The notes below the pieces were generated by a model. The model was not told where the DNA came from, did no database searches, and saw nothing but the letters and a program-made list of their open reading frames with translations. Position numbers and translations under genes: made by a program. Positions 3,197 through 51,430 of a DNA stretch of 64,000 nt are shown one piece after another; positions within the stretch are counted from its first letter, which is position 1; each line of letters opens with the position of its first letter. Source of the DNA: an uncultured bacterium (GTDB taxonomy: Bacteria > Hydrothermota > UBA3073 > NMUJ01 > CBEVQO01); contig CBEVQO010000005.1 in the NCBI GenBank assembly GCA_965552055.1, positions 13,373-77,372 of the forward strand, given 5' to 3'.

Positions 3197-3205
3197 ATCA
3201 CCTCC

Positions 3206-3961
3206 TTATCCAAATTTACCCATTAGATAATCTTCTGTACGCTTATCCCTGGGTCTTGTAAATACTTCTTCAGTTGGACCATATTCTATAAACTCTCCAT
3301 GCATAAGAAATGCTACATAGTCAGATACTCTTGCTGCTTGTTGAATATTGTGAGTTACGATAATTATTGTATATTTATTTTTCAAGTTTTCAAGTAATTC
3401 TTCGAGTTTCGCAGTAGCTATTGGGTCTAAAGCAGATGCAGGTTCATCAAGTAGTATTATTTCGGGCTCAACAGCCAGTGCCCTTGCTATACAAAGTCGT
3501 TGCTGCTGACCACCTGAAAGTGCGAGTGCAGAAGTATGTAATCTATCTTTAACTTCATCGAAAAGATTAGCATCTATCAGTGCCTTCTCAACCCTTTCCT
3601 GTAATTCTCTTTTATTTTTAACTCCATGAATTTTTAGTCCATATGCCACATTCTCAAATATTGATTTGGGTAAAGGATTGGGCTTCTGGAATACCATGCC
3701 TACTCGTTTGCGAAGCTCATACACATCGATGTCATCAGAATATATATCTTTGCCGTCAATAAGAATTTGTCCCTCTACTCTTGCATCATCAATTAAATCT
3801 ATCATTCGGTTGATGCATCTTAGAAAAGTAGATTTACCACAGCCAGATGGTCCCATTATCGCAGTTATCTTATTTTCCTTTATAGATATGTTATTATTAA
3901 CCAAAACATGTTTATCCCCGTACCATACATTTAAATTCTTAACGATTATTTTGTCTACCAT
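3206..3961 (-). CDS. pstB: Phosphate ABC transporter ATP-binding protein PstB
   Basis: Walker [13 protein letters not shown] signature [15 protein letters not shown], Walker [13 protein letters not shown]. Position within pstSCAB order. Confidence 0.9.
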
Positions 3962-11217: not shown

Positions 11218-11296
11218 ATTTTTAGCCCACCTCCCTATCCCCACCTCCCTATCCCCACCCCACAACCCATTGGTAATTAGCTCGCTTACGCTCGCA
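11218..11296 (-). repeat. Intergenic GC/G-tract-rich repeat, copy 2 (internal 14-bp tandem duplication)
   Basis: atttttagcccacctccctatccccacctccctatccccaccccacaacccattggtaattagctcgcttacgctcgca. Tandem 14-mer acctccctatcccc at 11229-11242 and 11243-11256. Lacks the hairpin block seen in copies 1 and 4. Confidence 0.5.
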
Positions 11297-11303
11297 TTTT
11301 TAC

Positions 11304-11331
11304 TTGACATCCTTAAAGATAAAATTATAAT
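11304..11331 (+). promoter_or_regulatory. sigma70-like promoter (TTGACA-N16-TATAAT) for the restriction-modification operon
   Basis: TTGACA 11304-11309 and TATAAT 11326-11331. The ATG at 11340 lies about 8 nt after the -10, so the AGGAG directly abutting the ATG is probably not a functional SD and the mRNA is likely leaderless. Confidence 0.5.
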
Positions 11332-11339
11332 TAAAGGAG

Positions 11340-12041
11340 ATGAATCTAAAGGAAGTTCAAAATAGACTTCAAGAAATTAAAAATAAAGGATTTGTGCCAT
11401 CTTTAAGAAGAGGAACAACAGGAATTGGATACACCTTTGAGATACTTTTTGGAATAAAGGAAAACAATATCCCAATCCCAGACATCGGCGGAAGAGTTGA
11501 AATTAAAACAATAAGAAGAGATTCGCAATCTTTAATAACATTATTTACTTTTAATAGAGGCGTCTGGCATATAAAGCAAAAAGAACTAATCAAAAAATAT
11601 GGATATGTTGATAAAAAGGGTAGATATGCATTAAAAAATACGGTTTTTTATGGCAAATCCATTCCACAAGGAATATCATTAGAAGTAGATGAAGATAAAA
11701 ACACTATTCATTTAGTTGATACGAATACAAAGAAAGTCCTTGCAACATGGGATGTTTATGTCATTGTCGGTATATTTATGACAAAATTGAGCAAATTATT
11801 ACTCGTAATAGCTGATAGAAAGAAAGAGAAAGGTAAAGAATATTTTCACTACAATGAAGCTTACCTTTTGACAGATCCCAGTGCTCGAAATTTTATAAAA
11901 GCATTTAAAAATTCCCTAATAGGCATTGATATTAGAATGCATCTAAAAGAAAGCGGAGAAGTTAGAAATAGAGGAACTGCATTCCGTATAAAAGAAAAGG
12001 ATTTATTAGAACTTTATGAAAATCGCAAGAAACTTATTTAA
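11340..12041 (+). CDS. Putative type II restriction endonuclease, MutH/MvaI/BcnI-like PD-ExK fold
   Basis: 233 aa with a candidate PD...ExK active site (IPIPDIGGRVEIKT) in a MutH-like arrangement. Stop is 2 nt before the SPPY methyltransferase gene. Confidence 0.5.
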   Translation: MNLKEVQNRLQEIKNKGFVPSLRRGTTGIGYTFEILFGIKENNIPIPDIGGRVEIKTIRRDSQSLITLFTFNRGVWHIKQKELIKKYGYVDKKGRYALKNTVFYGKSIPQGISLEVDEDKNTIHLVDTNTKKVLATWDVYVIVGIFMTKLSKLLLVIADRKKEKGKEYFHYNEAYLLTDPSARNFIKAFKNSLIGIDIRMHLKESGEVRNRGTAFRIKEKDLLELYENRKKLI

Positions 12042-12043
12042 AA

Positions 12044-13312
12044 ATGCCTGCAATTATGCATAGATTTAAAAAATATAGAGACAAAACATGGGATTTTCGT
12101 ATGGCGAATACAAAGCAATATACTCATTGTTTTCATTCTTATCCTGCAATGATGATACCGCAAGTCGCAGGACGCATTTTGGATGAATTTGGAAAAAATT
12201 CTAAACTTTTATTCGATCCATATTGCGGTACAGGAACTTCTTTAGTAGAAGCAAATTTAAGAGGCATAAATGCTATCGGCACAGACATTAACCCATTGGC
12301 TAGATTAATAGCTAAAGTTAAAACAACCATTATTCCTTTAAAATCTTTGGATTTATATATAAAAGATTTCAACGATTTTGTTCTTTCAATACGATTAGGA
12401 GGGAGAAAAGTTTCTCCTAAAATTCCTAATTTTAAAAATATCGATTATTGGTTCAAAAAAGAAACACAATATTGGCTCGCTGTCATTAAAGAATATATTG
12501 AAAAAATTGATAACGAAGATATTAGGGACTTCTTTAAAGTAGCATTTAGTGAAACAGTAAGAGAAGTATCGTTGACCCGAAATAGTGAATTTAAACTATA
12601 TAGAATGAGTGAAAAGCAAATAGAGAAATTTAATCCCGATGTTTTCTTTATAATGATGGAGAAATTAATAAGAAATAGAAATGGAATGGCAGAATATATC
12701 AAAATAAAAAAGAACAAAGCATCTTCTAAAATCTACGATTTTAACACAGTCTATGAGATTCCATTCGATATAATTCCACCAGAAAGTATAGATATCGTGG
12801 TAACTTCTCCACCATATGGTGATTCTAGAACCACAGTAGCATATGGACAATTTTCTCGACTCGCTAACCAATGGTTGGAATTTGAAGAAACTAACGAAGT
12901 AGATAAAAAGTCAATAGGTGGAGTAAGAAAGAAAGAATATAGAAATTTTAATGTTGAAGTGTTAGACAAAGTGCTATTTAAAATTGCACGAATAGATGAA
13001 AAAAGATTATATGATGTGATTTCATTTTACATAGACTATGAAAAATCCATAAATAATGTTGCTAAAGTTGTTAAAAAGGGCGGTATTGTAGCGTATGTAG
13101 TGGGTAATCGCAAGGTAAAGGGCATAGAAATTCCAAATGATGAAATAACCAAAGAATTTTTTGAAAGAAATGGCTTTAAGCATATTAAAACCATAATAAG
13201 AGAAATTCCAAATAAAAGGATGCCTAAAAGAAATAGTCCGAGCAATATAGCAGGAATAACGGATACAACTATGAATTACGAATACATTGTTATCTTGAGA
13301 AAAGAAAAATAA
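12044..13312 (+). CDS. DNA methyltransferase with SPPY motif IV (N4-cytosine/N6-adenine class, alpha-like order)
   Basis: AdoMet motif I FDPYCGTGTSLVEA near the N-terminus and motif IV VVTSPPYGD near residue 255, with the intervening region as presumptive target-recognition domain. Confidence 0.75.
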   Translation: MPAIMHRFKKYRDKTWDFRMANTKQYTHCFHSYPAMMIPQVAGRILDEFGKNSKLLFDPYCGTGTSLVEANLRGINAIGTDINPLARLIAKVKTTIIPLKSLDLYIKDFNDFVLSIRLGGRKVSPKIPNFKNIDYWFKKETQYWLAVIKEYIEKIDNEDIRDFFKVAFSETVREVSLTRNSEFKLYRMSEKQIEKFNPDVFFIMMEKLIRNRNGMAEYIKIKKNKASSKIYDFNTVYEIPFDIIPPESIDIVVTSPPYGDSRTTVAYGQFSRLANQWLEFEETNEVDKKSIGGVRKKEYRNFNVEVLDKVLFKIARIDEKRLYDVISFYIDYEKSINNVAKVVKKGGIVAYVVGNRKVKGIEIPNDEITKEFFERNGFKHIKTIIREIPNKRMPKRNSPSNIAGITDTTMNYEYIVILRKEK

Positions 13313-13318
13313 TTCTTT

Positions 13319-15679
13319 TCACTCATGCTCCTCAAAGCCTTTGAGTAATTCTGCCATTTCTCTCAGTTTCTGGTCAACGAGGTAATTTACGGTATCAGGT
13401 TCATAAGTGCCATCGGGCAAAAGTTTTCCCGCTTTTACACCCGTTAGCAATTCAATGCCTTCATCAATGGTTTTTATCGCATAAATATGAAATTTGCCAT
13501 CTTCAACTGCTTTAACAACTTCTTTATTCAACATTAGATTTTTGATATTCTGATAGGGTATAATCACTCCCTGTGTGCCAGTAAGCCCTTTTGCCTTGCA
13601 TACTCTGAAAAAGCCCTCGATTTTTTCGTTAACACCTCCTATTGGCTGTATCTCACCCCATTGATTCACAGAACCTGTAACAGCGAGGTCCTGACGGATA
13701 GGCAGTCCAGATAGGCACGATAAAAGTGCGTAAAGCTCCGTGCTCGAAGCACTATCACCTTCTATTTCTTCATACATCTGCTCAAAGCATATACTCGCAG
13801 AAAGAGAAAGCGGTTTATTATGTGCATATTTGCCAGCAAGATAAGCACTCAAAATCAAAACTCCTTTGCTGTGAATAGGACCACTCATTTCAATTTCACG
13901 CTCAATGTTTAAAATGCCCTTCTTACCCATATAAACCCTGGCAGTAACACGAACAGGATAGCCAAAAGAATAATCACCGAGCTCAACAACAGTCAAACCA
14001 TTCACCTGACCTACTTTTTTGCCTTCAACATCTATAAGTAATCTGCCTCTTTTTATTTCTTCGTGTATTTTTTCTTCTATCAAATTTACCCTGTAGCGCT
14101 TTTTCTCAAGTGCCTTTTCAACATGCTCTGCCGTCACATATTTACTGCCATCCTGTTCTGCCCAGAAACTCGCTTCAGTTATCACATCAACAACTTCTAT
14201 AAATTTTGTGGATAATTTATCCTGGTCTCCCGTTAACTCCGAGCCATATTCAAGTATGCGTGCTACACCAGATGGGTCAAAATGCTTCAAATTTTTATCC
14301 CTGCATTGTTTCGCAATAAACGAAATATAAGCATCAATATGCTCCTTTGTTCTCGGCATCTCTGTATCAAAATCCGCTTTCACTTTAAACAATTTTCTGA
14401 AATCTTCATCAAATTCATGTAAAAGATGATAAAGCAAAGGTGTACCAATCAAAATAACTTTAACATTATGAGGGATGGGTTCTGGACGCAATGTAACAAC
14501 AGGTGTCTGACGCAATTCCTCACCTATATTCTCAATCCTCAACTCCTTTGTCCTTATCGCACGCTTTAAGGCATCCCATACAAATGGATTTAAAAGGGCT
14601 TCTTTCGCCGGTATTATCAAAAAGCCACCATTAGCCCTGTGAAAAGCTCCGGGTTTTATCAAAGTAAAATGAGTTACGAGATTGCCATCAACACTTTTAT
14701 ACTCAATTCTCCCAAAAAGATTATAATATGTCGGATTTGGTTCAAAAACAAGGGGTGCATGAGATAAATGTGAATTATCAACAAAAACATTAACTTTTAA
14801 GTTAAAAAGAAAATCAGGCTCCTCTTCTCCTGAAAGTGATTTTATCTTTTCAGTAAATTGTGCAAGGTATTCTTTGACACCATCAAAATATTCTTTCAAT
14901 TTCTTATATTTCTGATATTTCGCTTTAAGTTGTTTCACATATCTTCCGACCACATTTTTTACAATCCATTCATCGAGCTGTTTTATTTCTTCTCTCATTA
15001 CATCGTCAATTTCATGTAGCTTATGGAAGGTTTCGTCGAGTTTTTCCTTTATATATGCTCCTGCTTTTTCAATTTTTTCTTTTTCCTTTTTCGGAAGGGC
15101 TTCGAGTTCTTCAAGTGTATATTGTGTGCCATCTTCTTTCAGTGGCACTGCAAAAAGACCTGCAGGACGCCTTAAAACTTCAAAATTATATTTGCGGGCT
15201 TCTTTTTGTAATGATTCTAAAATTTCGGATTTCTTAGCTTCATATTTCTCTTTTATCGTATTGACTTCACGAAAATACTCATCGGATTTGAAAAAATGAG
15301 GCAATTTCTTTTTGCATGCGATTATTAATTTCTCCATATCTTCTGCAAGTTCTTTCCCTTTGCCTTTATCAAGTTCAACAAAAATAGGTTCTTCTGGCTT
15401 TTTAAAATTAAAAAGATAACAATAATCCTTTGGCGGTGGTAATTTTTTTGCGTATTCTTCTACAAATGCACGAACAGTGGAAGTCCTGCCGGTGCCAGGC
15501 AATCCCGATACAAATATGTTAAAGCCATCGGCTTTGGTCTGCAGACCAAATTTTATAGCTTCTACTGCACGCTCCTGACCAATGGTGCCGGTAAGTGGTT
15601 TGACTTCTTCAGTACTCTTAAATTTAAATTGCGAAATATCATATTTTAATCTAAGTTTATCAGCACTTAATTTTTCCAT
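13319..15679 (-). CDS. Lon-like protease (LonB/LonC-type) with degenerate P-loop
   Basis: P-loop-like GLPGTGRTS (Arg in place of the Walker A Lys) and no clear hhhhDE Walker B. C-terminal Lon protease domain with EGDSASST (Ser) and FFRVCKAKG (Lys). ORF track starts at TTG 15751, but the first 24 codons are the intergenic repeat; the likely start is ATG 15677-15679 (MEKLSADK...). Confidence 0.7.
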   Translation of the reverse strand: MEKLSADKLRLKYDISQFKFKSTEEVKPLTGTIGQERAVEAIKFGLQTKADGFNIFVSGLPGTGRTSTVRAFVEEYAKKLPPPKDYCYLFNFKKPEEPIFVELDKGKGKELAEDMEKLIIACKKKLPHFFKSDEYFREVNTIKEKYEAKKSEILESLQKEARKYNFEVLRRPAGLFAVPLKEDGTQYTLEELEALPKKEKEKIEKAGAYIKEKLDETFHKLHEIDDVMREEIKQLDEWIVKNVVGRYVKQLKAKYQKYKKLKEYFDGVKEYLAQFTEKIKSLSGEEEPDFLFNLKVNVFVDNSHLSHAPLVFEPNPTYYNLFGRIEYKSVDGNLVTHFTLIKPGAFHRANGGFLIIPAKEALLNPFVWDALKRAIRTKELRIENIGEELRQTPVVTLRPEPIPHNVKVILIGTPLLYHLLHEFDEDFRKLFKVKADFDTEMPRTKEHIDAYISFIAKQCRDKNLKHFDPSGVARILEYGSELTGDQDKLSTKFIEVVDVITEASFWAEQDGSKYVTAEHVEKALEKKRYRVNLIEEKIHEEIKRGRLLIDVEGKKVGQVNGLTVVELGDYSFGYPVRVTARVYMGKKGILNIEREIEMSGPIHSKGVLILSAYLAGKYAHNKPLSLSASICFEQMYEEIEGDSASSTELYALLSCLSGLPIRQDLAVTGSVNQWGEIQPIGGVNEKIEGFFRVCKAKGLTGTQGVIIPYQNIKNLMLNKEVVKAVEDGKFHIYAIKTIDEGIELLTGVKAGKLLPDGTYEPDTVNYLVDQKLREMAELLKGFEEHE

Positions 15680-15846
15680 TTTTAGCCCCGCCTCCGCTGT
15701 CCCCACCTTCCCGATTAAGTCAGCCCACTCCTTACCCTTCTTTAAACGCAATCAGAAGATAAAGCGTAAACAACCCGAATAACCCACATCCCCGTAATGG
15801 GCTGACATATCAACCCTTATGTAATGTGCTCGGCTGCGCCGAGCAA
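15680..15846 (-). repeat. Intergenic GC/G-tract-rich repeat, copy 3 (divergent middle, perfect 7-bp palindrome)
   Basis: tttttagccccgcctccgctgtccccacc ... caacccttatgtaatgtgctcggctgcgccgagca. Shares 5' and 3' blocks with copies 1, 2 and 4; the middle carries inverted repeat GTCAGCCCA/TGGGCTGAC. Abuts the Lon-like start codon directly (GGGGCTAAAAATG). Confidence 0.45.
15828..15844 (-). terminator. Hairpin GCTCGGC-tgc-GCCGAGC just downstream of the membrane-protein gene stop
   Basis: Perfect 7-bp stem, 3-nt loop, 4 nt after the stop at 15849. Only a weak U-rich tail follows, so terminator function is uncertain; it is also the conserved 3' block of the repeat. Confidence 0.3.
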
Positions 15847-19207: not shown

Positions 19208-19237
19208 TTGACAAATTGGGATTTTTGATAATATAAT
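19208..19237 (+). promoter_or_regulatory. rRNA operon promoter P2 (tandem duplicate of P1)
   Basis: agcTTGACAaattgggatttttgataatataat: TTGACA 19208-19213, TATAAT-like 19231-19237. The ~67-bp unit agcttgacaaattg...ttctttg is repeated from P1. Confidence 0.55.
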
Positions 19238-19261: not shown

Positions 19262-20818
<1,557 letters not shown>

Positions 20819-20851
20819 TTTCTCTCCGGGCAGCACACTTTATTTTTTTAT

Positions 20852-20923
<72 letters not shown>

Positions 20924-20924
20924 T

Positions 20925-20996
20925 GGGGATGTAGCTCAGTGGGAGAGCGCCTGCTTTGCAAGCAGGAGGTCAGGGGTTCGAATCCCCTCATCTCCA
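20925..20996 (+). tRNA. tRNA-Ala (anticodon TGC)
   Basis: Acceptor GGGGAUG/CAUCUCC with G3:U70, anticodon loop UUUGCAA, T-loop GGTTCGAAT. Separated from tRNA-Ile by 1 nt. CCA not encoded. Confidence 0.9.
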
Positions 20997-21040
20997 TGGG
21001 AAGCGATTTAGTTCTTTGACAATCAAGGCAGATGAGCATC

Positions 21041-24047
<3,007 letters not shown>

Positions 24048-24087
24048 GATGCTCATCTGCCTACTTTGTAATTAACCTGTTTTTAAC

Positions 24088-43216: not shown

Positions 43217-46200
43217 ATGAGGTGGTTAATTTTTATGTTTTTAACTGCAAATCTGTGGGGGGCTGAATACTGGTGGAGGATTGAGGTCGTTGATTCTGGG
43301 GTTCAGCGTGGTCAATATACAAGTGTTGTTCTTGATGATAGTGGTAGACCCTGGATTTCTTATTATGATGCCAATAATGGGTGGTTGATGTGTGCGCACT
43401 GGACAGGGACTGCATGGGATATTGATACGGTTGATGATAGTGGCAATGTTGGTATGTATTCGAATATTGCTCTTGATAAAGCAGGTTATCCTCATATCGT
43501 TTACTTTGATGATGGGAATACAAGGTTAAAGCATGCGTGGTGGACTGGTGCTTTTTGGAAAACAGAGACCGTGAATGACCCTAACTCAAATGATTATGGA
43601 TACTGGTGCGATATTGCTATAGATTCTTTAAATCGCATCTGGGTATCGTACTATGATGCTGATAACAAAAGGCTTATGTGTGCACGCAAAGTAGGAGCTG
43701 TGTGGGATACTATTTATATCGTAGTTGAAGCATTTGGACCTCCGGTCGGGGAATACTCATCAATTTGTATTGATACATCTAATAATCCCCATATATCCTA
43801 TTATCATCAGATTAATGGGTTATCTCATGCATGGTGGGATGGTTCAAAATGGCAGGCTCAGCAGGTTGATTTTGCAGGCGGTTATTACACAAGCATAATT
43901 GCAAGCGAATGTGATACACTGCATATATCTTATTACAATCCTTCTTCGCGGGATTTAAAATATGCGAAAGGTTATTATTCTTCGGGTAGCTGGGGATGGA
44001 CGACGCAGGTAGTTGATACACAGGGAGATGTTGGCAAATGGACGAGCATAGCTGTCTGTGGAAATTCACCTCATATATCCTATTATGATGCTACAAATTT
44101 ATGTCTCAAATATGCACATTTTGAGAATGGTAGCTGGGAGATAGAAGTTGTTGATTCGCCGAAAGTCGGTGAATACACATCAATTGCACTTGATACAAAT
44201 GGCTTACCCTGTATATCCTATTATGACGGAGGTAGTGAATGGCTTAAATTTGCAAGATTGCTTATAAGACCAGAGGTTGATTCAACTTCACCTCTTCATA
44301 ATGAAGTTAATGTATCGCGTGCAACTCAGATAAATGTCTGGTTCTCAAAGGATATTGAATCTGCAACAATAAATAGTGCGAGTTTTAAAGTAATTGGTTC
44401 ACAATCGGGTGAAAGGAAGGGCACGATAACTTACGATTCTAATGAACGCAAAGCAACTTTTACATTGAATGCAGGTGAAACTTTCTATACCGGTGAGAAG
44501 GTGACAGTAATTTTAACAGATTCTATTAAGTCAGTGGATGGTGCACCACTTGTGCCTTATGTGTTTGAATTTACGATAAAGGCAGCCGAAGGGATTGCAG
44601 AGTTTAGTAATGAGGTAAGGTATAGTGTATTGGGTACGCCTGTTGATATAGAGGTTTGTGACCTTGACCTTGATGGTGACCCAGACATTGTTACGCTTTC
44701 ACAGGATACGATAATGATATGGCGTAATGATGTTGATAGTCTGGTACCTGTGGATACTATTCCCTCGCCTTCTTCACAGTACTGCATTGCGATATTAGAC
44801 CTTGATTTGGATGGTTTACCTGATATTGTGGTTGATTCAACTCCATCGAGTGCTCCTTATAGTATAAAGTTTTACAAAAATCAAGGTGGATTGAATTTCG
44901 CCTGGGGTTTTCGTTGTCAAACTGCTTATGGTGTAACAGATATGTTTGTGTCTGACTTTGATGGAGATGGCGACTTTGATATTGCTGCACTGGAATTAAC
45001 TCAGGTTGAGATTCTTTTAAATGAAGGATTTTTTAATTTTACATCGAGTGATACGATTGACCTTACATTTTCGCACAATAAATTATATGGTGCTGATTAT
45101 AATAATGATGGGTTGATTGACCTTGCTGTTACTGCCGCAGCGGGCACTCCCGGTTATGATGTTCTTGCAAATGAAGGTGAAGGCAAATTTAAGCACATTG
45201 GAACAATAACTTTAAGTCAGGGTGTTAAGGATATTATTGCATCTGATTTCGACAATGATTACAATGCGGATAATGCTTTGACGGGCGATGATACACTTAT
45301 TATTTCAGAAGGCAATGGTGATTTTAGTTTTGCACCGGAAGATGATTATGTTGCTACTGGTTCAAATTTTCTTACTTCCGGTGATTTTGATGCAGATGGT
45401 GATATAGACCTTGCGGTTAGTGGGAATGTTACAGGTGGTGATACTTTATTTATATTTTTGAATGATAATGCTAGTTTTGATTCTGTTCACAAATTTTCTG
45501 CAACTGCGATAGAAAGAATTGTGAGTGCAGATTTTAACCTTGATAGCACAATTGATATTGCATCTATTCATTCTGGTGGAATATTATCAATATTTTACAA
45601 TACGCCCGATACATTTCCACCTCCGCCTCCTGAAAGTTTAACTGCAAATGGTGGTTCTCCCTCTCCATGGGATTCCAGTGCTCGATTTGTAATTGACTGG
45701 ATAAATCCTAATGACCCATCGGGGATACTTTTTGCCAATTATAAGATAGGTTCGAGACCTGTGAGTGACTGGGATACAACAGGTCATATGTCTGCACCGT
45801 ATACTCATCCCAAAGATACGATTTACTGGAAAGGGGAAGGGATAGATACATTGTGGGTGTGGCTTGTTGATGGTAACCTTAACACCTCGAAAGATTCTGT
45901 TTCATTTGTGCTTTTAAGAAGGGATACAACACCTCCTCCTGAGCCACAAAAGATTTCTCCATCTGATGGAATATGGGTTGATAGTGCAAGGATAAAATTT
46001 ATGTGGCATTCTGTTGTTGATTCTCTATCAGGGACAATGAGTTATGGGATAGTGCTTGAATATGATGATGTAATAGGTCCTCCTTATATTAGAACAGCGG
46101 GCGATTTGAGTGGCACAACTTACTTTTATACATGTCCTGAGACTGCTGTTTACTGGAGAGTATTTGCAAAGGATTCGGCAACAAACAGGAGTCCGCAATC

Positions 46201-49200
46201 ATTCTGGTGTGTAAAAATAGACACAACTCCTCCAAATAAATTTTATGTTATTTCTCCCGATGGTGTATGGTTGAGGAAACCTCCTTATACATTTATCTGG
46301 CATAGTGCAAAAGACCACTGGTCAGGTGTTGAAAGTTATAAATTGAGAGTGTGGAGAGAAGGTTTTGCTGCTAGCAATTGGTCCGGTATAACTGATACCT
46401 CTTACATTGTGTTTGGTTTGCCTGGTTTTGCCGAAACTACATACTGGTGGTGTGTTATAGCGTATGATTCTGCTGGAAATTATGTGTATAGTGATACAGG
46501 GATTTTCTGGACAGATACTACAATTTTGCCGCCTTCTAATCTCACGATAAATGGTAAAAATCCGAACGACTGGACCAATGATAGTGTATTTACATTGAAC
46601 TGGACAAATCCTTCTGATTATTCCGGTATCGTTAGAGCATTATATAAGATTGGCAATAGACCTTCTTCTGATTATGATACAACTGGTTCTCTCACAGGAA
46701 TTCCTCCTGTAAGTATTATCTGGCGGGATGAAGGTGTAGAAACATTATGGCTGTGGCTCGAAGATAAGGCAGGTAATGTTGATTACACAAAAAATGCATT
46801 TGCAATAATAAGAAGGGATATAACTCCGCCTCAATCTTTTACTCAGATTTCACCTGTAAATAATTTCTGGCTAAATACCATTAATCCTCGCCTTATATGG
46901 CACAGCACTATGGATACTTTGTCGGGCTTGGCTTATTATACGATAAATGTTGATACAGTTCAAACATTTTCAACGAAAATAATTTGTGATACTGTTTCGG
47001 ATACCATTTACAATGCAAATCTATTTGAAGACGCGTTTTACTGGTATGTTGAGGCATGGGATTCTGCTGGTAATGTATGTTCTACTTTTGTGTGGAATTT
47101 CAAAATAGATACAACCCATCCTCCCAAACCTGTTTTAATATCTCCTCCTGATGGCTCATGGAACGGCAAATATGCTCATTTTGTATGGCATAAAGTTGAA
47201 GATTACTGGTCTGGTCTAGCTGCTTATCGCTTAAACATTGATACGAATGCTTTGATGCCAAATCCTCTGACATTTTCACTTACAGATACAGAGACAACAA
47301 TTGTGCTTACTCATGAAGGCAAAACTTATTACTGGATGGTGGAAGCTGAAGATTCGGCATTTAATATATCGCAAAGTTTGGTATGGACTTTCAAACTTGA
47401 CACAACAGTTCTTGCACCGATTAATTTAATTGCAAATGATAGTTCTCCGTCACCGTGGCAAAGGAGTTCTATGTTTGTTATTAACTGGCAAAATCCATCT
47501 GATTCCGCTGGAATAAAGTTTGCATTATACAAACTTGGCACAGGACCCAGTAATAACTGGGATACCACAGGTACGATGCATTTACCACCCGATACGATTT
47601 ACTGGCAGGGCGAGGGCAAAGAAACTTTATGGGTATGGCTTTGCGATAGTGCAGGCAATGTTAATTACCATAATCGCTCTTTTGTGTTGTTAAGAAGAGA
47701 TACAACTCCTCCTTTTGCATTTTCAAAAATAAGACCCCAGGATAATGCGTGGATAAGGGTTGTTAAGCCTTCTCTTATCTGGCATAGCACTCAAGATTCT
47801 CTATCGGGTCTGAGGATTTATCGTGTTGCTGTAGATAAAGATATGACTCCTCCTTTTATGATTGATTTTGTTTTGCGAGGTACTCTATATGTTACACCCC
47901 ATTTACCTGAGACGATACTTTACTGGGCAGTCGTAGCAGTTGATTCTGCAGGTAACTTTAAAGAAGCTGATGCGGATACAAAAGTATGGTGGAAGATGAA
48001 AATAGATACAACTCCTCCTGATACAGTCCATCCAGTTTATCCTGTATCTAATCAATGGACGAGAGGTGGATTTATGTGGCGTAGTGCTAAAGATTACTGG
48101 TCAGGGATTAGATTTTATCATTTTGTGATAGATACAGTTTATCCATTCACTCCCAGTCCCATAAAGGATACAGTTTGCAGGGATACCGTGATATTTATCA
48201 AAGGACTTTCTGAGCGGAATTATTACTGGAAAGTTGTAGCATTAGATTCTGCTTTTAATGGAGGTGCTGGTGTTGTTCATCAATGTCGAGTTGATACCAC
48301 GCCACCGGATAGCGTTAAATTAATCTCTCCTGAGAACCTTTCTTACACGAATGATATACATTCTGTATTTACATGGGATACAGGCTATGATGCGCGTTCA
48401 GGTGTTATGGGCTATATTTTCTGGGATTCTTCACTTGCATATGGTGAAAAAATTGATACTCTTATCTTAGGCGTATTTAACACATCTTATAAGCCTTTAA
48501 AAGGTTTAAAGGAGGGCTGGCATTGCTGGGCAGTTGTAGCAATGGATTCAGCCTACAATGTTAGTGATGGTCATTATCCTTATTCTGTGCATTTGTTATG
48601 TGTGGATACTACTCCTCCTGAGTCCGCAATTGCAACTTCGCCTCTTTATGTTGATAGCCTTGTATTTGTTGTGCAATGGAGTAAAGGTAAAGATACTTTA
48701 TCGGGCATCACAGATACTTATAAATTGAGATATTCTACAGATTTAGTTTCATGGTATGATACGGCTGTTACGGGTACCGCATTTATTTTCAAAGGAGAAG
48801 ACCAGACAAAATATTACTTTGAGGTGCTTTCTCGGGATTATGCTGGCAATTTTGAGCGCATCACAGGAGTGCCTGAATGCTCAACCTATGTTGATACTAC
48901 ACCGCCTCAGCAGGTTCAGTTAATCTCACCTGAAGGCTGGATTAAAGAATTATCACCTGTTTTAATATGGCACAAAGCAAATGACTTTACAGGGATAGCA
49001 GAATATTATGTGCAGCTAAGTAAAGATATGGGTTTCGATACCATTATTTTTTCGGATACCGTTGCAGATACATTTGCGGTGGTAGGTTTAAATTTAATGG
49101 AAAATGTTAAGTACTACTGGCGAGTTAGGGCAAAAGACAACGCAGGCAATGTAAACATGTGGTCAGGTTATAATATGTTTAAAGTGGATACATCATCGCC

Positions 49201-51430
49201 GCAAATACCTGAACTTGTAAGTCCTCTAAATGATACTCCAGTAACAACGGTTGATGATACTTTGACACTTATATGGAGGGCATCTTACGATGAGCTTTCT
49301 GGTATTTATGCTTATCAGGTGCAGATAAGCGAAGTTCCTGATTTCTCATCGCTTATACTTGATACTATTTTGTATCATCCTGATACTATATTGAGGTATC
49401 CAAGAGAATTAAATGAAATTAAGCATTATTGGCGAGTATTTGCGATAGATAGTGTCTGGAATGTTAGCGATGGACATAAAGGGACATTTATGGTTGACAA
49501 TACCGCGCCTGTACTTGTTCATAAGTATCCTGACCTGAATGACACGGTTGACCCGCGTATAAAAATAGAAATTGCATTTTCTGAAAAAGTAGACCCCAAA
49601 ACGGTTGATACTCTCTCCTTCTGTTTATATATGGAAGCAGAAAAAGTGAGAGGAAATGTTTATCAACATCCAGCTATAGAGACATTGTTTTACTTTGAGC
49701 CTAAAGAAAATCTTGAACCCAACACCAAATATCTTGTTGTTGTTTCAACAAAAGATAAAAAAGTTAAAGATATTGCAGGTAATAAGATGTCGATGGTGAG
49801 CTGGAGTTTTTACACTGCAGGCAGTGCTGATAATATGCCTCCGGATGTTAAGGAAATAAAAACTTATCCCGAAGTTACTTATGGTGCGCCTTATGTAGTT
49901 ATAAAAGCATTGCTAAAGGATGATATTTCGCGCATTAAATATGCTGAATATTTCGTTGATTCAGTGGGTTCACCTGGTACGGGCGATGCAATGATGCCAC
50001 TCGATGGTGCGTTTGATAGCAAAGAAGAGTGGGTGATAGATACTCTATTCACTAAAGATTATAGTGGCACTTTGAGGATATTTATTCAGGGTAAGGATGA
50101 ATGGGACAACTGGAGTGATGCAGTTAAATCGAAGATAATAGTATGTCCTCCCGATACAATACCTCCGCTTTTTGATATAATGGTTAATGGAAGCCGAGAA
50201 GATACACTTCAGGTGACAGATACTATTGTAGTGAGAACTAAATCTTCGGAAATTATAAATCCCGATTATCCCGTAGTATGCACTTTGAAATACAATTCCA
50301 CAGTTATTGCACAAACTATGAAGAGAGAAGATAGTGTTACCTATACTGTGCAATTTGTAATTACACATCCTCCTTTGACAGAATATGATGTTAAAGTGCT
50401 TGGTTACGATTATGGATGGCATTGGGATACTTTGAAGGATAGCATTGTAAGTATGCCAAATCTCGGTGTCAACGAAAAGCATTTTATACTTTATGACTTT
50501 GAATCACCCAGTATAATCTCATTTACATTAAAACCAGAGACCCTTGAAATAACGGATAAACTAAATGTGGAGATTACAATAAAAGATAATTATGAGCTTA
50601 AAGAAGTTAGATTTTATTTTGACTCCGACACCGTACCTGTGGAAACGATTTCATTGAGTGGCAGGGATACTTCTTTAACAACGAACATACCTGTTAGTGG
50701 TTTGACTCCTGCCTCTTCCCATATATTGCGTGCCCTTGCATCTGATATATGTGATAATATTAGCCCTGAAGTTTCTGCTGGCTTTTATATCAGAGAACTC
50801 GATGTCATACCACCTGTTTTGATGCTTCAGAGACCGGATACATTTTATCTTGGAGATTCCGTTTTAATAGTAGCAATCGCGAGCGAGAAATTGTCAAGAG
50901 ATTCAATTCCGGTTTGTTTGATAAAAGGCTTAAGAGGTAATGATACTTTGATAGATACTTTAAAGATGACTTTTGTGGATGATTCTACCTGTCAGACGAA
51001 ATACAGGGTTCAGGGTTTAAATCTGGGAGTTGCTTACATTGATGTATATGCTTATGATGAAGCAGGCAACCTTGGACTCGTTGAAGATTCGGTTTACATC
51101 AGTAAGAGAGGAAGATTATTTGACCCAAGGAGAGATGTGTTCCCGTTTCCTAATCCTGTTAGAAAATCCAACGAGGTGTATTTCCATATTTATGTGAATC
51201 AAAATGCCTATGTTGATATAAGAATTTATACGATAGAAGGTCGTCTTGTTAAGAGATTAGAAAGAATATTTGTAGAAGGAGGTCGTCCGAAATACAGCTG
51301 GGAGGCAAATGTAATTAAGGTTGACATTTCTAAATTAAAAACAGGATTATATTATGCCAAGATTACGATAAGGAGTCTGGATGGGAAAGAAAAACAGAGT
51401 TGCACCAAGAGATTTGTGGTGATAAAGTAA
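43217..51430 (+). CDS. Giant (2737 aa) modular secreted surface protein: N-terminal propeller-like repeats, FG-GAP/VCBS-like repeats, at least ten Ig/FN3-like modules, T9SS C-terminal sorting domain
   Basis: Signal peptide; about seven ~45-aa repeats (G.YTSIALD..G.PHISYYD....LKYA); DxDxDG repeats (DLDLDGDPDIV, DFDGDGDFDIA, DFDADGDIDLA); ~100-aa modules separated by (K/R)(I/V)DTTPP linkers, each with YW.V.A.D.AGN; tail FPFPNPV...IRIYTIEGRLV...KRFVVIK. Confidence 0.75.
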   Translation: MRWLIFMFLTANLWGAEYWWRIEVVDSGVQRGQYTSVVLDDSGRPWISYYDANNGWLMCAHWTGTAWDIDTVDDSGNVGMYSNIALDKAGYPHIVYFDDGNTRLKHAWWTGAFWKTETVNDPNSNDYGYWCDIAIDSLNRIWVSYYDADNKRLMCARKVGAVWDTIYIVVEAFGPPVGEYSSICIDTSNNPHISYYHQINGLSHAWWDGSKWQAQQVDFAGGYYTSIIASECDTLHISYYNPSSRDLKYAKGYYSSGSWGWTTQVVDTQGDVGKWTSIAVCGNSPHISYYDATNLCLKYAHFENGSWEIEVVDSPKVGEYTSIALDTNGLPCISYYDGGSEWLKFARLLIRPEVDSTSPLHNEVNVSRATQINVWFSKDIESATINSASFKVIGSQSGERKGTITYDSNERKATFTLNAGETFYTGEKVTVILTDSIKSVDGAPLVPYVFEFTIKAAEGIAEFSNEVRYSVLGTPVDIEVCDLDLDGDPDIVTLSQDTIMIWRNDVDSLVPVDTIPSPSSQYCIAILDLDLDGLPDIVVDSTPSSAPYSIKFYKNQGGLNFAWGFRCQTAYGVTDMFVSDFDGDGDFDIAALELTQVEILLNEGFFNFTSSDTIDLTFSHNKLYGADYNNDGLIDLAVTAAAGTPGYDVLANEGEGKFKHIGTITLSQGVKDIIASDFDNDYNADNALTGDDTLIISEGNGDFSFAPEDDYVATGSNFLTSGDFDADGDIDLAVSGNVTGGDTLFIFLNDNASFDSVHKFSATAIERIVSADFNLDSTIDIASIHSGGILSIFYNTPDTFPPPPPESLTANGGSPSPWDSSARFVIDWINPNDPSGILFANYKIGSRPVSDWDTTGHMSAPYTHPKDTIYWKGEGIDTLWVWLVDGNLNTSKDSVSFVLLRRDTTPPPEPQKISPSDGIWVDSARIKFMWHSVVDSLSGTMSYGIVLEYDDVIGPPYIRTAGDLSGTTYFYTCPETAVYWRVFAKDSATNRSPQSFWCVKIDTTPPNKFYVISPDGVWLRKPPYTFIWHSAKDHWSGVESYKLRVWREGFAASNWSGITDTSYIVFGLPGFAETTYWWCVIAYDSAGNYVYSDTGIFWTDTTILPPSNLTINGKNPNDWTNDSVFTLNWTNPSDYSGIVRALYKIGNRPSSDYDTTGSLTGIPPVSIIWRDEGVETLWLWLEDKAGNVDYTKNAFAIIRRDITPPQSFTQISPVNNFWLNTINPRLIWHSTMDTLSGLAYYTINVDTVQTFSTKIICDTVSDTIYNANLFEDAFYWYVEAWDSAGNVCSTFVWNFKIDTTHPPKPVLISPPDGSWNGKYAHFVWHKVEDYWSGLAAYRLNIDTNALMPNPLTFSLTDTETTIVLTHEGKTYYWMVEAEDSAFNISQSLVWTFKLDTTVLAPINLIANDSSPSPWQRSSMFVINWQNPSDSAGIKFALYKLGTGPSNNWDTTGTMHLPPDTIYWQGEGKETLWVWLCDSAGNVNYHNRSFVLLRRDTTPPFAFSKIRPQDNAWIRVVKPSLIWHSTQDSLSGLRIYRVAVDKDMTPPFMIDFVLRGTLYVTPHLPETILYWAVVAVDSAGNFKEADADTKVWWKMKIDTTPPDTVHPVYPVSNQWTRGGFMWRSAKDYWSGIRFYHFVIDTVYPFTPSPIKDTVCRDTVIFIKGLSERNYYWKVVALDSAFNGGAGVVHQCRVDTTPPDSVKLISPENLSYTNDIHSVFTWDTGYDARSGVMGYIFWDSSLAYGEKIDTLILGVFNTSYKPLKGLKEGWHCWAVVAMDSAYNVSDGHYPYSVHLLCVDTTPPESAIATSPLYVDSLVFVVQWSKGKDTLSGITDTYKLRYSTDLVSWYDTAVTGTAFIFKGEDQTKYYFEVLSRDYAGNFERITGVPECSTYVDTTPPQQVQLISPEGWIKELSPVLIWHKANDFTGIAEYYVQLSKDMGFDTIIFSDTVADTFAVVGLNLMENVKYYWRVRAKDNAGNVNMWSGYNMFKVDTSSPQIPELVSPLNDTPVTTVDDTLTLIWRASYDELSGIYAYQVQISEVPDFSSLILDTILYHPDTILRYPRELNEIKHYWRVFAIDSVWNVSDGHKGTFMVDNTAPVLVHKYPDLNDTVDPRIKIEIAFSEKVDPKTVDTLSFCLYMEAEKVRGNVYQHPAIETLFYFEPKENLEPNTKYLVVVSTKDKKVKDIAGNKMSMVSWSFYTAGSADNMPPDVKEIKTYPEVTYGAPYVVIKALLKDDISRIKYAEYFVDSVGSPGTGDAMMPLDGAFDSKEEWVIDTLFTKDYSGTLRIFIQGKDEWDNWSDAVKSKIIVCPPDTIPPLFDIMVNGSREDTLQVTDTIVVRTKSSEIINPDYPVVCTLKYNSTVIAQTMKREDSVTYTVQFVITHPPLTEYDVKVLGYDYGWHWDTLKDSIVSMPNLGVNEKHFILYDFESPSIISFTLKPETLEITDKLNVEITIKDNYELKEVRFYFDSDTVPVETISLSGRDTSLTTNIPVSGLTPASSHILRALASDICDNISPEVSAGFYIRELDVIPPVLMLQRPDTFYLGDSVLIVAIASEKLSRDSIPVCLIKGLRGNDTLIDTLKMTFVDDSTCQTKYRVQGLNLGVAYIDVYAYDEAGNLGLVEDSVYISKRGRLFDPRRDVFPFPNPVRKSNEVYFHIYVNQNAYVDIRIYTIEGRLVKRLERIFVEGGRPKYSWEANVIKVDISKLKTGLYYAKITIRSLDGKEKQSCTKRFVVIK

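Follow-up and report, generated by a model that had tools for sequence, protein, structure and literature searches.

The window examined here, a stretch of 64,000 nucleotides from an uncultured bacterium of the Hydrothermota (contig CBEVQO010000005.1, positions 13,373 to 77,372), holds two adjacent open reading frames (ORFs) on the + strand that are predicted to encode a restriction-modification (R-M) pair. The first of them (11340..12041) encodes a protein of 233 residues, the putative endonuclease R, and the second (12044..13312) one of 422 residues, the putative methyltransferase M. The stop codon of R (TAA, 12039-12041) is separated from the start codon of M (ATG, 12044-12046) by 2 nt, as had been reported in the preliminary description of this DNA, and this junction (12039..12046, + strand) represents a candidate site for translational coupling. 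A sigma-70-type promoter (11304..11331, + strand) precedes the pair, which lies between genes for an OmpR-type response regulator and a sensor kinase on one side and a gene for a LonC-like protease on the other. The pair is regarded here, with good confidence, as a Type IIP cassette of the MvaI/BcnI kind that was acquired horizontally and now resides in the chromosome. It is an uncharacterised further member of a well-known family and no new kind of system, and NCBI already labels its homologues as "MvaI/BcnI family restriction endonuclease".

The PD...ExK arrangement previously described for the 233-residue protein is present as IPIPDIGGRVEIKT (residues 44-57, with P47-D48 followed by E54-I55-K56). 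This protein, for which an MvaI/BcnI-like endonuclease had been guessed, matches the Pfam family PF15515 (E = 3.5e-43; residues 8-226 on positions 2-227 of the 227 in the profile) with 148.7 bits, where the cut-off is 25, and several Type II endonuclease models of PADLOC match it as well (REase_II, E = 1.4e-24). A sequence search of the solved structures with phmmer returned only R.MvaI (E = 4e-21) and R.BcnI (E = 2e-15). The same two enzymes were recovered with an AlphaFold2 model of R (mean predicted local distance difference test (pLDDT) score of 91.2, built on 23 homologues), for which a Foldseek search of the PDB gave E values of about 1e-18 and template modelling (TM) scores of 0.69-0.71 for 2odh (BcnI) and 2oaa (MvaI), all other chains having E values above 0.01. 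A homology search and a structure prediction for the MutH-like fold were among the checks proposed in the preliminary description, and both came out in favour of the family originally guessed.

Alignment of R to 2oa9 and 2odh places its predicted catalytic residues in 11439..11507 of the + strand, at E34 (11439-11441) and at D48, E54, and K56 (P47..K56, 11478-11507). These residues are equivalent to E36, D50, E55, and K57, which constitute the active site of MvaI (PMC1874612), and in BcnI to D55, E60, and K62. None of the four varies among 23 close homologues or across 71 related loci. With a full-length profile match, these catalytic residues, and a predicted two-lobe fold resembling that of MutH, R is placed by sequence and model among the members of the family, and is expected to be a monomeric PD-(D/E)XK enzyme. 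Like MvaI, R would most likely bind a 5-bp pseudo-palindromic site as a monomer and, as in other members of the family, would cleave by nicking first one strand and then the other behind the second C of CC^WGG, a cut position that is inferred from the family only.

The specificity of R can be approached through the residues that contact the bases, which are listed for MvaI from the structure of its complex with DNA (PMC1874612). Seven of the eleven base-contact residues of MvaI are identical in both proteins, with R25, T29, T68, T102, D207, R209, and R230 of MvaI corresponding to R23, T27, T70, T101, D197, R199, and R216 of R. Several of the positions that bear on specificity lie in a recognition lobe (11928..11987, + strand), which, according to the alignments, comprises D197-I-R199, R209-N210-R211 (equivalent to H223-D224-H225 of MvaI), A214, and R216 (equivalent to R230 of MvaI). 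The first of these is the D-x-R element of MvaI (D207-x-R209), by which the central T and the G next to it are recognized; it is kept in R, whereas BcnI lacks its Arg. BcnI reads the central C:G pair with H77 and H219 (PMC3089477), and the equivalent positions of R are occupied by T70 (11547-11549, + strand) and A214, as they are by T68 and A228 in MvaI. All of the recognition positions are invariant within the clade of relatives in which the endonuclease gene comes first, save A214, which is Ala in nine loci and Gly in four.

The second, independent line of evidence comes from the avoidance of the target site in the hosts, with the expected number of sites taken from a maximal-order Markov model. 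The whole window contains 64 CCWGG sites against 120 expected (a ratio of 0.53), whereas CCSGG is close to its expectation (0.98); when the rRNA operon is left out, the ratios become 0.40 for CCWGG (38 observed against 94.7 expected) and 0.81 for CCSGG. A similar picture is found in 19 contigs of other hosts in which close relatives of the cassette reside (138 kb), where CCWGG stands at 0.47 (92 against 196), CCSGG at 0.99, and CCWGG is the most depleted of the 32 five-base pseudo-palindromes. In 64 loci of more distant clades, the depletion of CCWGG is milder (314 against 516, 0.61; CCSGG, 0.88), and in five control contigs (107 kb), which were chosen through the neighbouring Lon-like gene, both sites occur about as often as expected (CCWGG, 392 against 391, 1.00; CCSGG, 0.97). 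Although such evidence is indirect, the depletion of CCWGG clearly tracks the carriage of this R-M family and contrasts with the behaviour of CCSGG. Contact residues and site avoidance, taken as two independent lines, point to CCWGG, and not CCSGG, as the most likely target of R.

Other sites are avoided in the window as well. GATC is extremely depleted, with 27 sites against about 229 expected (0.12), and GGCC (0.43) and AGWCT (0.45-0.50) are also scarce, which suggests that this genome is, or once was, subject to further restriction systems, such as ones specific for GATC and GGCC.

Several observations weigh against an MvaI-type specificity. The identity between R and MvaI is only about 27%, and three of the contacts are substituted, with N28 of MvaI replaced by Thr, and both H223 and H225 by Arg, a standard guanine reader. 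In addition, D224 of MvaI, which contacts the DNA through its main chain, is Asn in R. In MvaI, H223 and H225 read the guanines opposite the two cytosines (PMC1874612). The match of the contact residues is therefore partial, and supports an MvaI-type specificity without proving it; given the low identity and the substituted contacts, the specificity may be relaxed or shifted, for example to CCNGG. Furthermore, the depletion of CCWGG could be caused, wholly or in part, by a different system of this specificity in the genomes concerned.

An enzyme of the same family with another central-base specificity, either CC^SGG as in BcnI or CC^NGG, is the alternative that survives best, and it would fit the three substituted contacts, the fact that PF15515 spans both MvaI and BcnI, and the marginally top position of apo-BcnI in the Foldseek search. 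Nevertheless, it is considered unlikely, because the His residues with which BcnI reads the central pair are replaced by Thr and Ala, as in MvaI, because the D-x-R element retains the Arg that BcnI lacks, and because the phmmer scores favour MvaI (78.7 versus 60 bits). For CC^SGG in particular, the lack of any depletion of CCSGG in the window and in the 19 related contigs, compared with that of CCWGG, argues in the same direction.

A different question is whether the system is decayed, with R inactive or unexpressed and M acting as an orphan methyltransferase. The R genes of this clade do decay: in a relative from Verrucomicrobiota (L005, R from 4001), R is interrupted by a premature stop at codon 62 next to an apparently intact M, in what looks like the decay of the toxic partner. 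The predicted leaderless start of R in the window, which has no usable Shine-Dalgarno sequence, could also mean a low output of the endonuclease. In the window, however, R is full length and keeps all of the catalytic and recognition residues of the clade, and the protein is 100% identical in a second strain of the same organism, where the locus shows 98.6% nucleotide identity and so differs at 1.4% of its nucleotides. As the promoter of R is also as near to the consensus as that of the rRNA operon, and the avoidance of CCWGG argues for an ongoing or recent restriction pressure in the host, such a decay appears quite unlikely.

The protein encoded downstream of R (12044..13312, + strand) is predicted to be a class-alpha amino-methyltransferase producing N4-methylcytosine (m4C) at CCWGG. 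Its earlier assignment to the Type II DNA methyltransferases is corroborated by PADLOC (MTase_II, PDLC03322, E = 1.7e-138) and by Pfam (N6_N4_Mtase, PF01555, E = 7.9e-12). In the latter match, residues 10-84 of M align to the C-terminal end of a class-beta profile; since the N-terminus of the protein falls on the C-terminal end of the profile, the order of its motifs is permuted. Both of the motifs that had been read from the sequence were located in the 422-residue ORF. Motif I, FDPYCGTGTS, covers residues 57-66 (12212-12241), of which F57-G64 (FDPYCGTG; 12212..12235, + strand) would constitute the S-adenosylmethionine-binding loop after strand beta-1, with D58, P59, G62, and G64 invariant in 24 homologues. 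Between the motif I-II region and motif IV, the protein has an insertion of mainly helical structure (about residues 95-225; 12326..12718, + strand), delimited by the secondary structure of the AlphaFold2 model and presumed to be the target-recognition domain. Motif IV itself, SPPY (S255-Y258; 12806-12817, + strand), is the predicted catalytic loop after strand beta-4 (IVVT). The whole stretch T254-S-P-P-Y-G-D-S261 is invariant in the 24 homologues. The model of M (pLDDT of 79.7; predicted TM score of 0.85) places motif I after a strand at residues 55-58 and SPPY after a strand at residues 249-254. In class alpha, by definition, the recognition domain stands between motif I and motif IV, in that order (PMC7544214), and the order FDPYCGTG, helical insert, SPPY assigns M to this class by sequence and model.

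A guide to the chemistry of M is a collinear methyltransferase from Deinococcus radiodurans, encoded by its plasmid CP1 and 24% identical to M over 355 residues (BLASTP E = 1e-23), whose SPPY aligns with that of M. This protein was identified by its sequence as M.DraR1, since its residues D63, P64, T255, and N261 match those named for that enzyme (PMC6712171). M.DraR1 has been experimentally demonstrated to be an alpha-class N4-cytosine enzyme that makes C(m4C)GCGG, and S/DPPY/F is cited as a hallmark of N4-cytosine enzymes (PMC6712171; for SPPY also PMC2532716). Moreover, two enzymes that methylate CCWGG, M.MvaI and M.PspGI, which resembles it, are described as N4-cytosine methyltransferases with SPPY, and it has been argued that thermophiles, of which the present host is probably one, are better served by N4-methylcytosine than by other methylated forms of cytosine (PMC2532716). 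M is also 46% identical to the methyltransferase found beside an MvaI/BcnI homologue on the Geobacillus plasmid pLDW-1. Sequence and fold searches of the PDB found no close solved relative of M, returning only generic Rossmann methyltransferases (Trm11, NNMT, and Dam), and the fold cannot decide between N4 and N6; in NCBIfam, neither R nor M matched a specific family, the only matches being weak ones to tRNA and rRNA methyltransferases. M would most likely turn the inner C of CCWGG into N4-methylcytosine, blocking cleavage, and the N4 chemistry is a well-supported prediction. On the opposite side, SPPY alone is no proof of N4 methylation, and M.DraR1 is only 24% identical and has a different site.

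Methylation of the N6 position of adenine, that is, of the central A of CCAGG, is very improbable. It could be proposed on the grounds that PF01555 spans N6 and N4 enzymes, that some plasmid homologues are annotated as "DNA adenine methylase", and that the chemistry is not fixed by sequence alone. Nonetheless, motif IV of M is SPPY and not D/NPPY, and m4C is the product of M.DraR1, the homologue with validated activity. Cleavage by MvaI is blocked on the A strand only when the central base is N6-methyladenine, but on both strands when the inner C is N4-methylcytosine (PMC1874612). Adenine methylation would hence protect poorly, and the CCTGG strand has no adenine to be methylated.

Homologues of R form 745 clusters at E <= 0.001, and are found in WOR-3, Zixibacteria, Verrucomicrobiota, Bacteroidota, Caldisericota, Nitrospirota, Aquificaceae, and archaea (Methanoxibalbensis and DHVE2). 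A homologue of M lies directly beside the R gene, on the same strand, in all of the loci complete enough to show both (81/81), which confirms the R-M pairing proposed from the window and identifies the two proteins as a cognate pair. The flanking genes, on the contrary, differ in every host. The closest relatives, with 84% protein identity (L082, L085, and L086), are located among archaeal-type genes, such as those for RtcB, archaemetzincin, V4R, and an HVO_0163-type helix-turn-helix (HTH) protein, and other relatives (also L019 and L079) are present in metagenome-assembled genomes labelled Methanoxibalbensis and DHVE2. This distribution indicates a recent transfer of the cassette between archaea and bacteria.

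In the window, the GC content of the cassette is 30%, compared with 33-38% in its flanks, and that of third codon positions is 21-23%, compared with 27-31%. Neither direct nor inverted repeats of a convincing kind were found around the cassette, and in a search for a related genome without it, the closest Lon-like homologue was only 55% identical, too distant for the insertion boundaries to be defined. The gene of the LonC-like protease itself (13319-15751, - strand) is convergent with M and separated by 6 nt from its stop codon. Outside its own genome, no homologue of this protease above 55% identity was found in a collection of 5.8 billion proteins, and the host therefore belongs to a poorly sampled lineage.

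That R might be a MutH-like strand-discrimination nickase working with a maintenance methyltransferase in mismatch repair, rather than in defence, is scarcely credible: MvaI and BcnI are indeed structural relatives of MutH and R probably nicks one strand at a time, but the Pfam match is to MvaI_BcnI, the only significant fold matches are BcnI and MvaI, neither mutS nor mutL is found among the neighbours of the cassette in the window, the two genes move between unrelated bacteria and archaea into a new context each time, and target-site avoidance is a signature of restriction.

The order of the two genes was compared across the loci (L013-L081 versus L002-L012, L019, L058, L065, L073, and L082-L087). 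Loci whose R is at least about 65% identical to the protein of the window have R before M, and those with lower identities have M before R. In a neighbour-joining tree of the endonucleases, rooted on BcnI and with MvaI as sister to the whole group, all of the endonuclease-first loci form one clade inside methylase-first clades. Because of this nesting, the endonuclease-first order appears in the tree as a derived, monophyletic state with a single origin, which afterwards spread widely among the phyla of bacteria and archaea. Where R is intact, which is the case in 11 of the endonuclease-first loci, the distance between the stop codon of R and the start codon of M is 0-10 nt, and this short gap suggests translational coupling. 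About half of the endonuclease-first relatives hold an AGGAGG sequence inside the last codons of R, the equivalent sequence in the window being AAGAAA, and no Shine-Dalgarno sequence was found there ahead of M.

The promoter of the cassette consists of TTGACA (11304-11309), a spacer of 16 nt, and TATAAT (11326-11331), and matches the consensus at 12 of 12 positions. Three such perfect promoters, including the present one and that of the rRNA operon, were found in the 64-kb window, against 0.09 expected from Markov-1 simulations. TATAAT ends 8 nt before the ATG of R, in agreement with the single promoter and the position of its -10 element originally proposed, and this geometry fits the leaderless reading given at that time. 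A GGAG sequence (11336-11339) abuts the ATG with zero spacing, compared with the 4-7 nt found in those host genes that have a Shine-Dalgarno sequence, and the host 16S rRNA ends in the canonical CACCTCCTTT. There is no in-frame start upstream of 11340, since each ORF was listed from the earliest start codon that follows a stop. The zero-spaced GGAG, the proximity of the promoter, and the lack of an upstream start together lead to the prediction that the R-M transcript is leaderless or near-leaderless, starting at about 11338-11340.

This kind of start may not be peculiar to the cassette. Near-consensus -35 and -10 elements, with the -10 ending 2-9 nt before the start codon, precede other genes of the window (24307, 32566 on the - strand, 33720, 38087, 55310 on the - strand, and 60546 on the - strand), and although starts were called crudely in this survey, leaderless mRNAs may be common in this organism. 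The upstream regions of the relatives of the cassette cannot be aligned with each other, some of them having a normal Shine-Dalgarno sequence and others not, so that the promoter and the leaderless start are to be seen as local features supplied by the host and not as a conserved trait of the system.

Some other features of the window were noted. The rRNA operon (19266-24049) is complete, comprising 16S rRNA, two tRNAs, and 23S rRNA, and has a perfect promoter, TTGACA-18-TATAAT, at 19208-19237. Its GC content is 62%, against 36% in the rest of the window, which suggests that the host is probably a thermophile. An ORF of 2737 residues (43217-51430, + strand) is preceded by an AGGAGG Shine-Dalgarno sequence with a spacing of 6 nt. 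A C-rich unit of 14 nt, CCCACCTCCCTATC, is repeated exactly in tandem at positions 11226-11253, in the intergenic region that separates the response-regulator gene from the promoter of the cassette. This unit, which reads GGAGGTGG on the minus strand, has near-copies at 2424-2437 and 3198-3211, giving four matches in the window against 0.24 expected, and it may belong to the divergent regulator gene rather than to the cassette.

No dedicated regulator was recognized in the cassette. The upstream intergenic region of 163 bp has no ORF, and the 6 nt between the stop codon of M and the Lon-like gene leave no controller gene on that side either; no HTH extension is present at the N-terminus of M, and the antisense ORFs of the cassette have no Pfam matches. 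Searches for internal and antisense promoters within the cassette returned only 9/12 matches, as frequent as in shuffled sequence, and a stricter scan in the style of the host promoters returned none. An EcoRI-like antisense scheme was considered and rejected, as no strong promoter other than that at 11304-11331 exists on either strand. No intrinsic terminator was found after M.

R and M would probably be transcribed from the 11304-11331 promoter as one leaderless bicistronic mRNA, and the translation of M would be coupled to the termination of R 2 nt upstream, being carried out by ribosomes that have just finished R. The order of the genes had raised the question of how methylation is established before restriction. 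This question is a fair one, but the arrangement is less special than had been implied, given that endonuclease-first operons are known, that leaderless starts seem common in this host, and that the upstream region is not conserved. For the resident chromosomal copy, the timing problem would not arise. For entry into a naive cell, it may be suggested, as an argument and not as a finding, that one methyl group per site is enough for protection, and that a monomer needing two nicks, each of them repairable by ligase, would give ligase and the methyltransferase a kinetic head start.

The cassette, like the endonuclease-first subclade to which it belongs, could be a minimal, regulator-free, endonuclease-first operon, with one promoter, tight coupling of R and M, and, in this host, a leaderless mRNA, whose safe establishment in a naive cell would rest entirely on the properties of its enzymes, namely a monomer that has to nick twice and full protection by a single N4-methyl group per site, with transcriptional timing playing no part. 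This proposal is a tentative one, more doubtful than probable. Against the main reading of the cassette given above, M has no Shine-Dalgarno sequence, and if its translation is strictly coupled it would be made at most as often as R, which is an uncomfortable ratio; the kinetic argument accounts for that ratio by inference only.

Among the known systems, that of MvaI from Kocuria/Micrococcus varians (PDB 2OA9/2OAA) is the closest in predicted behaviour. Both share the Pfam family, the catalytic E...PD...ExK residues, the two-lobe fold (predicted for R), and seven of the eleven base contacts, including the D-x-R element, with Thr and Ala at the central-base positions; in both, the partner methyltransferase is of the SPPY type, and cleavage at CC^WGG with N4 protection of the inner C is predicted for the present pair. 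They differ in their low identity (about 27%), in the H223-D224-H225 loop, which is R-N-R here, in N28, which is Thr here, and in the host, which is an uncultured, probably thermophilic bacterium in the present case. BcnI, from Brevibacillus centrosporus (PDB 2ODH/2ODI; CC^SGG), has the family, fold, and catalytic residues in common with R, and serves as the model of a monomeric enzyme by which the strands are nicked one after the other (PMC3089477). It differs from R in H77 and H219, replaced by T70 and A214, and in the absence of the MvaI-type R199, and the hosts studied here do not avoid CCSGG. On the methyltransferase side, M and M.DraR1 share a collinear arrangement of FxGxG, central recognition domain, and SPPY, but are only 24% identical and differ in the recognition domain and in the target site.

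Other systems resemble the cassette in a single aspect. PspGI, from Pyrococcus, is a CCWGG system of a thermophile with an SPPY N4-type methyltransferase, as predicted here, but R.PspGI belongs to another endonuclease family, being a base-flipping homodimer similar to EcoRII, with its cleavage position ahead of the first C. In EcoRI and Eco29kI, the endonuclease gene also precedes the methyltransferase gene on one bicistronic transcript, to which these systems add a separate promoter for M within the R gene, as well as antisense RNA transcribed from strong reverse promoters (PMC12707154). The endonuclease-first order is shared by the present cassette, whereas neither an internal promoter for M nor antisense promoters were detected in it on either strand. 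Contrary to the C-protein-controlled Type II systems, no HTH controller gene lies upstream of the endonuclease here. Only two aspects of the cassette are mildly unusual, namely the derived endonuclease-first order, which has spread across domains, and the apparent lack of a regulator.

If the prediction holds, the uncultured thermophile would be the source of a probably thermostable CC^WGG endonuclease and of an m4C methyltransferase, although their practical value would be modest, since enzymes of CCWGG specificity such as MvaI, BstNI, and PspGI already exist. The mapping of contact residues, combined with the depletion of sites across unrelated hosts compared with controls, offers a cheap and testable way of calling the specificity of uncharacterised enzymes. 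For the biology of this family, the endonuclease-first subclade, widely spread by horizontal transfer although no regulator is detectable, represents a natural test of whether monomeric, nicking-type enzymes need any timing of expression in order to establish themselves safely.

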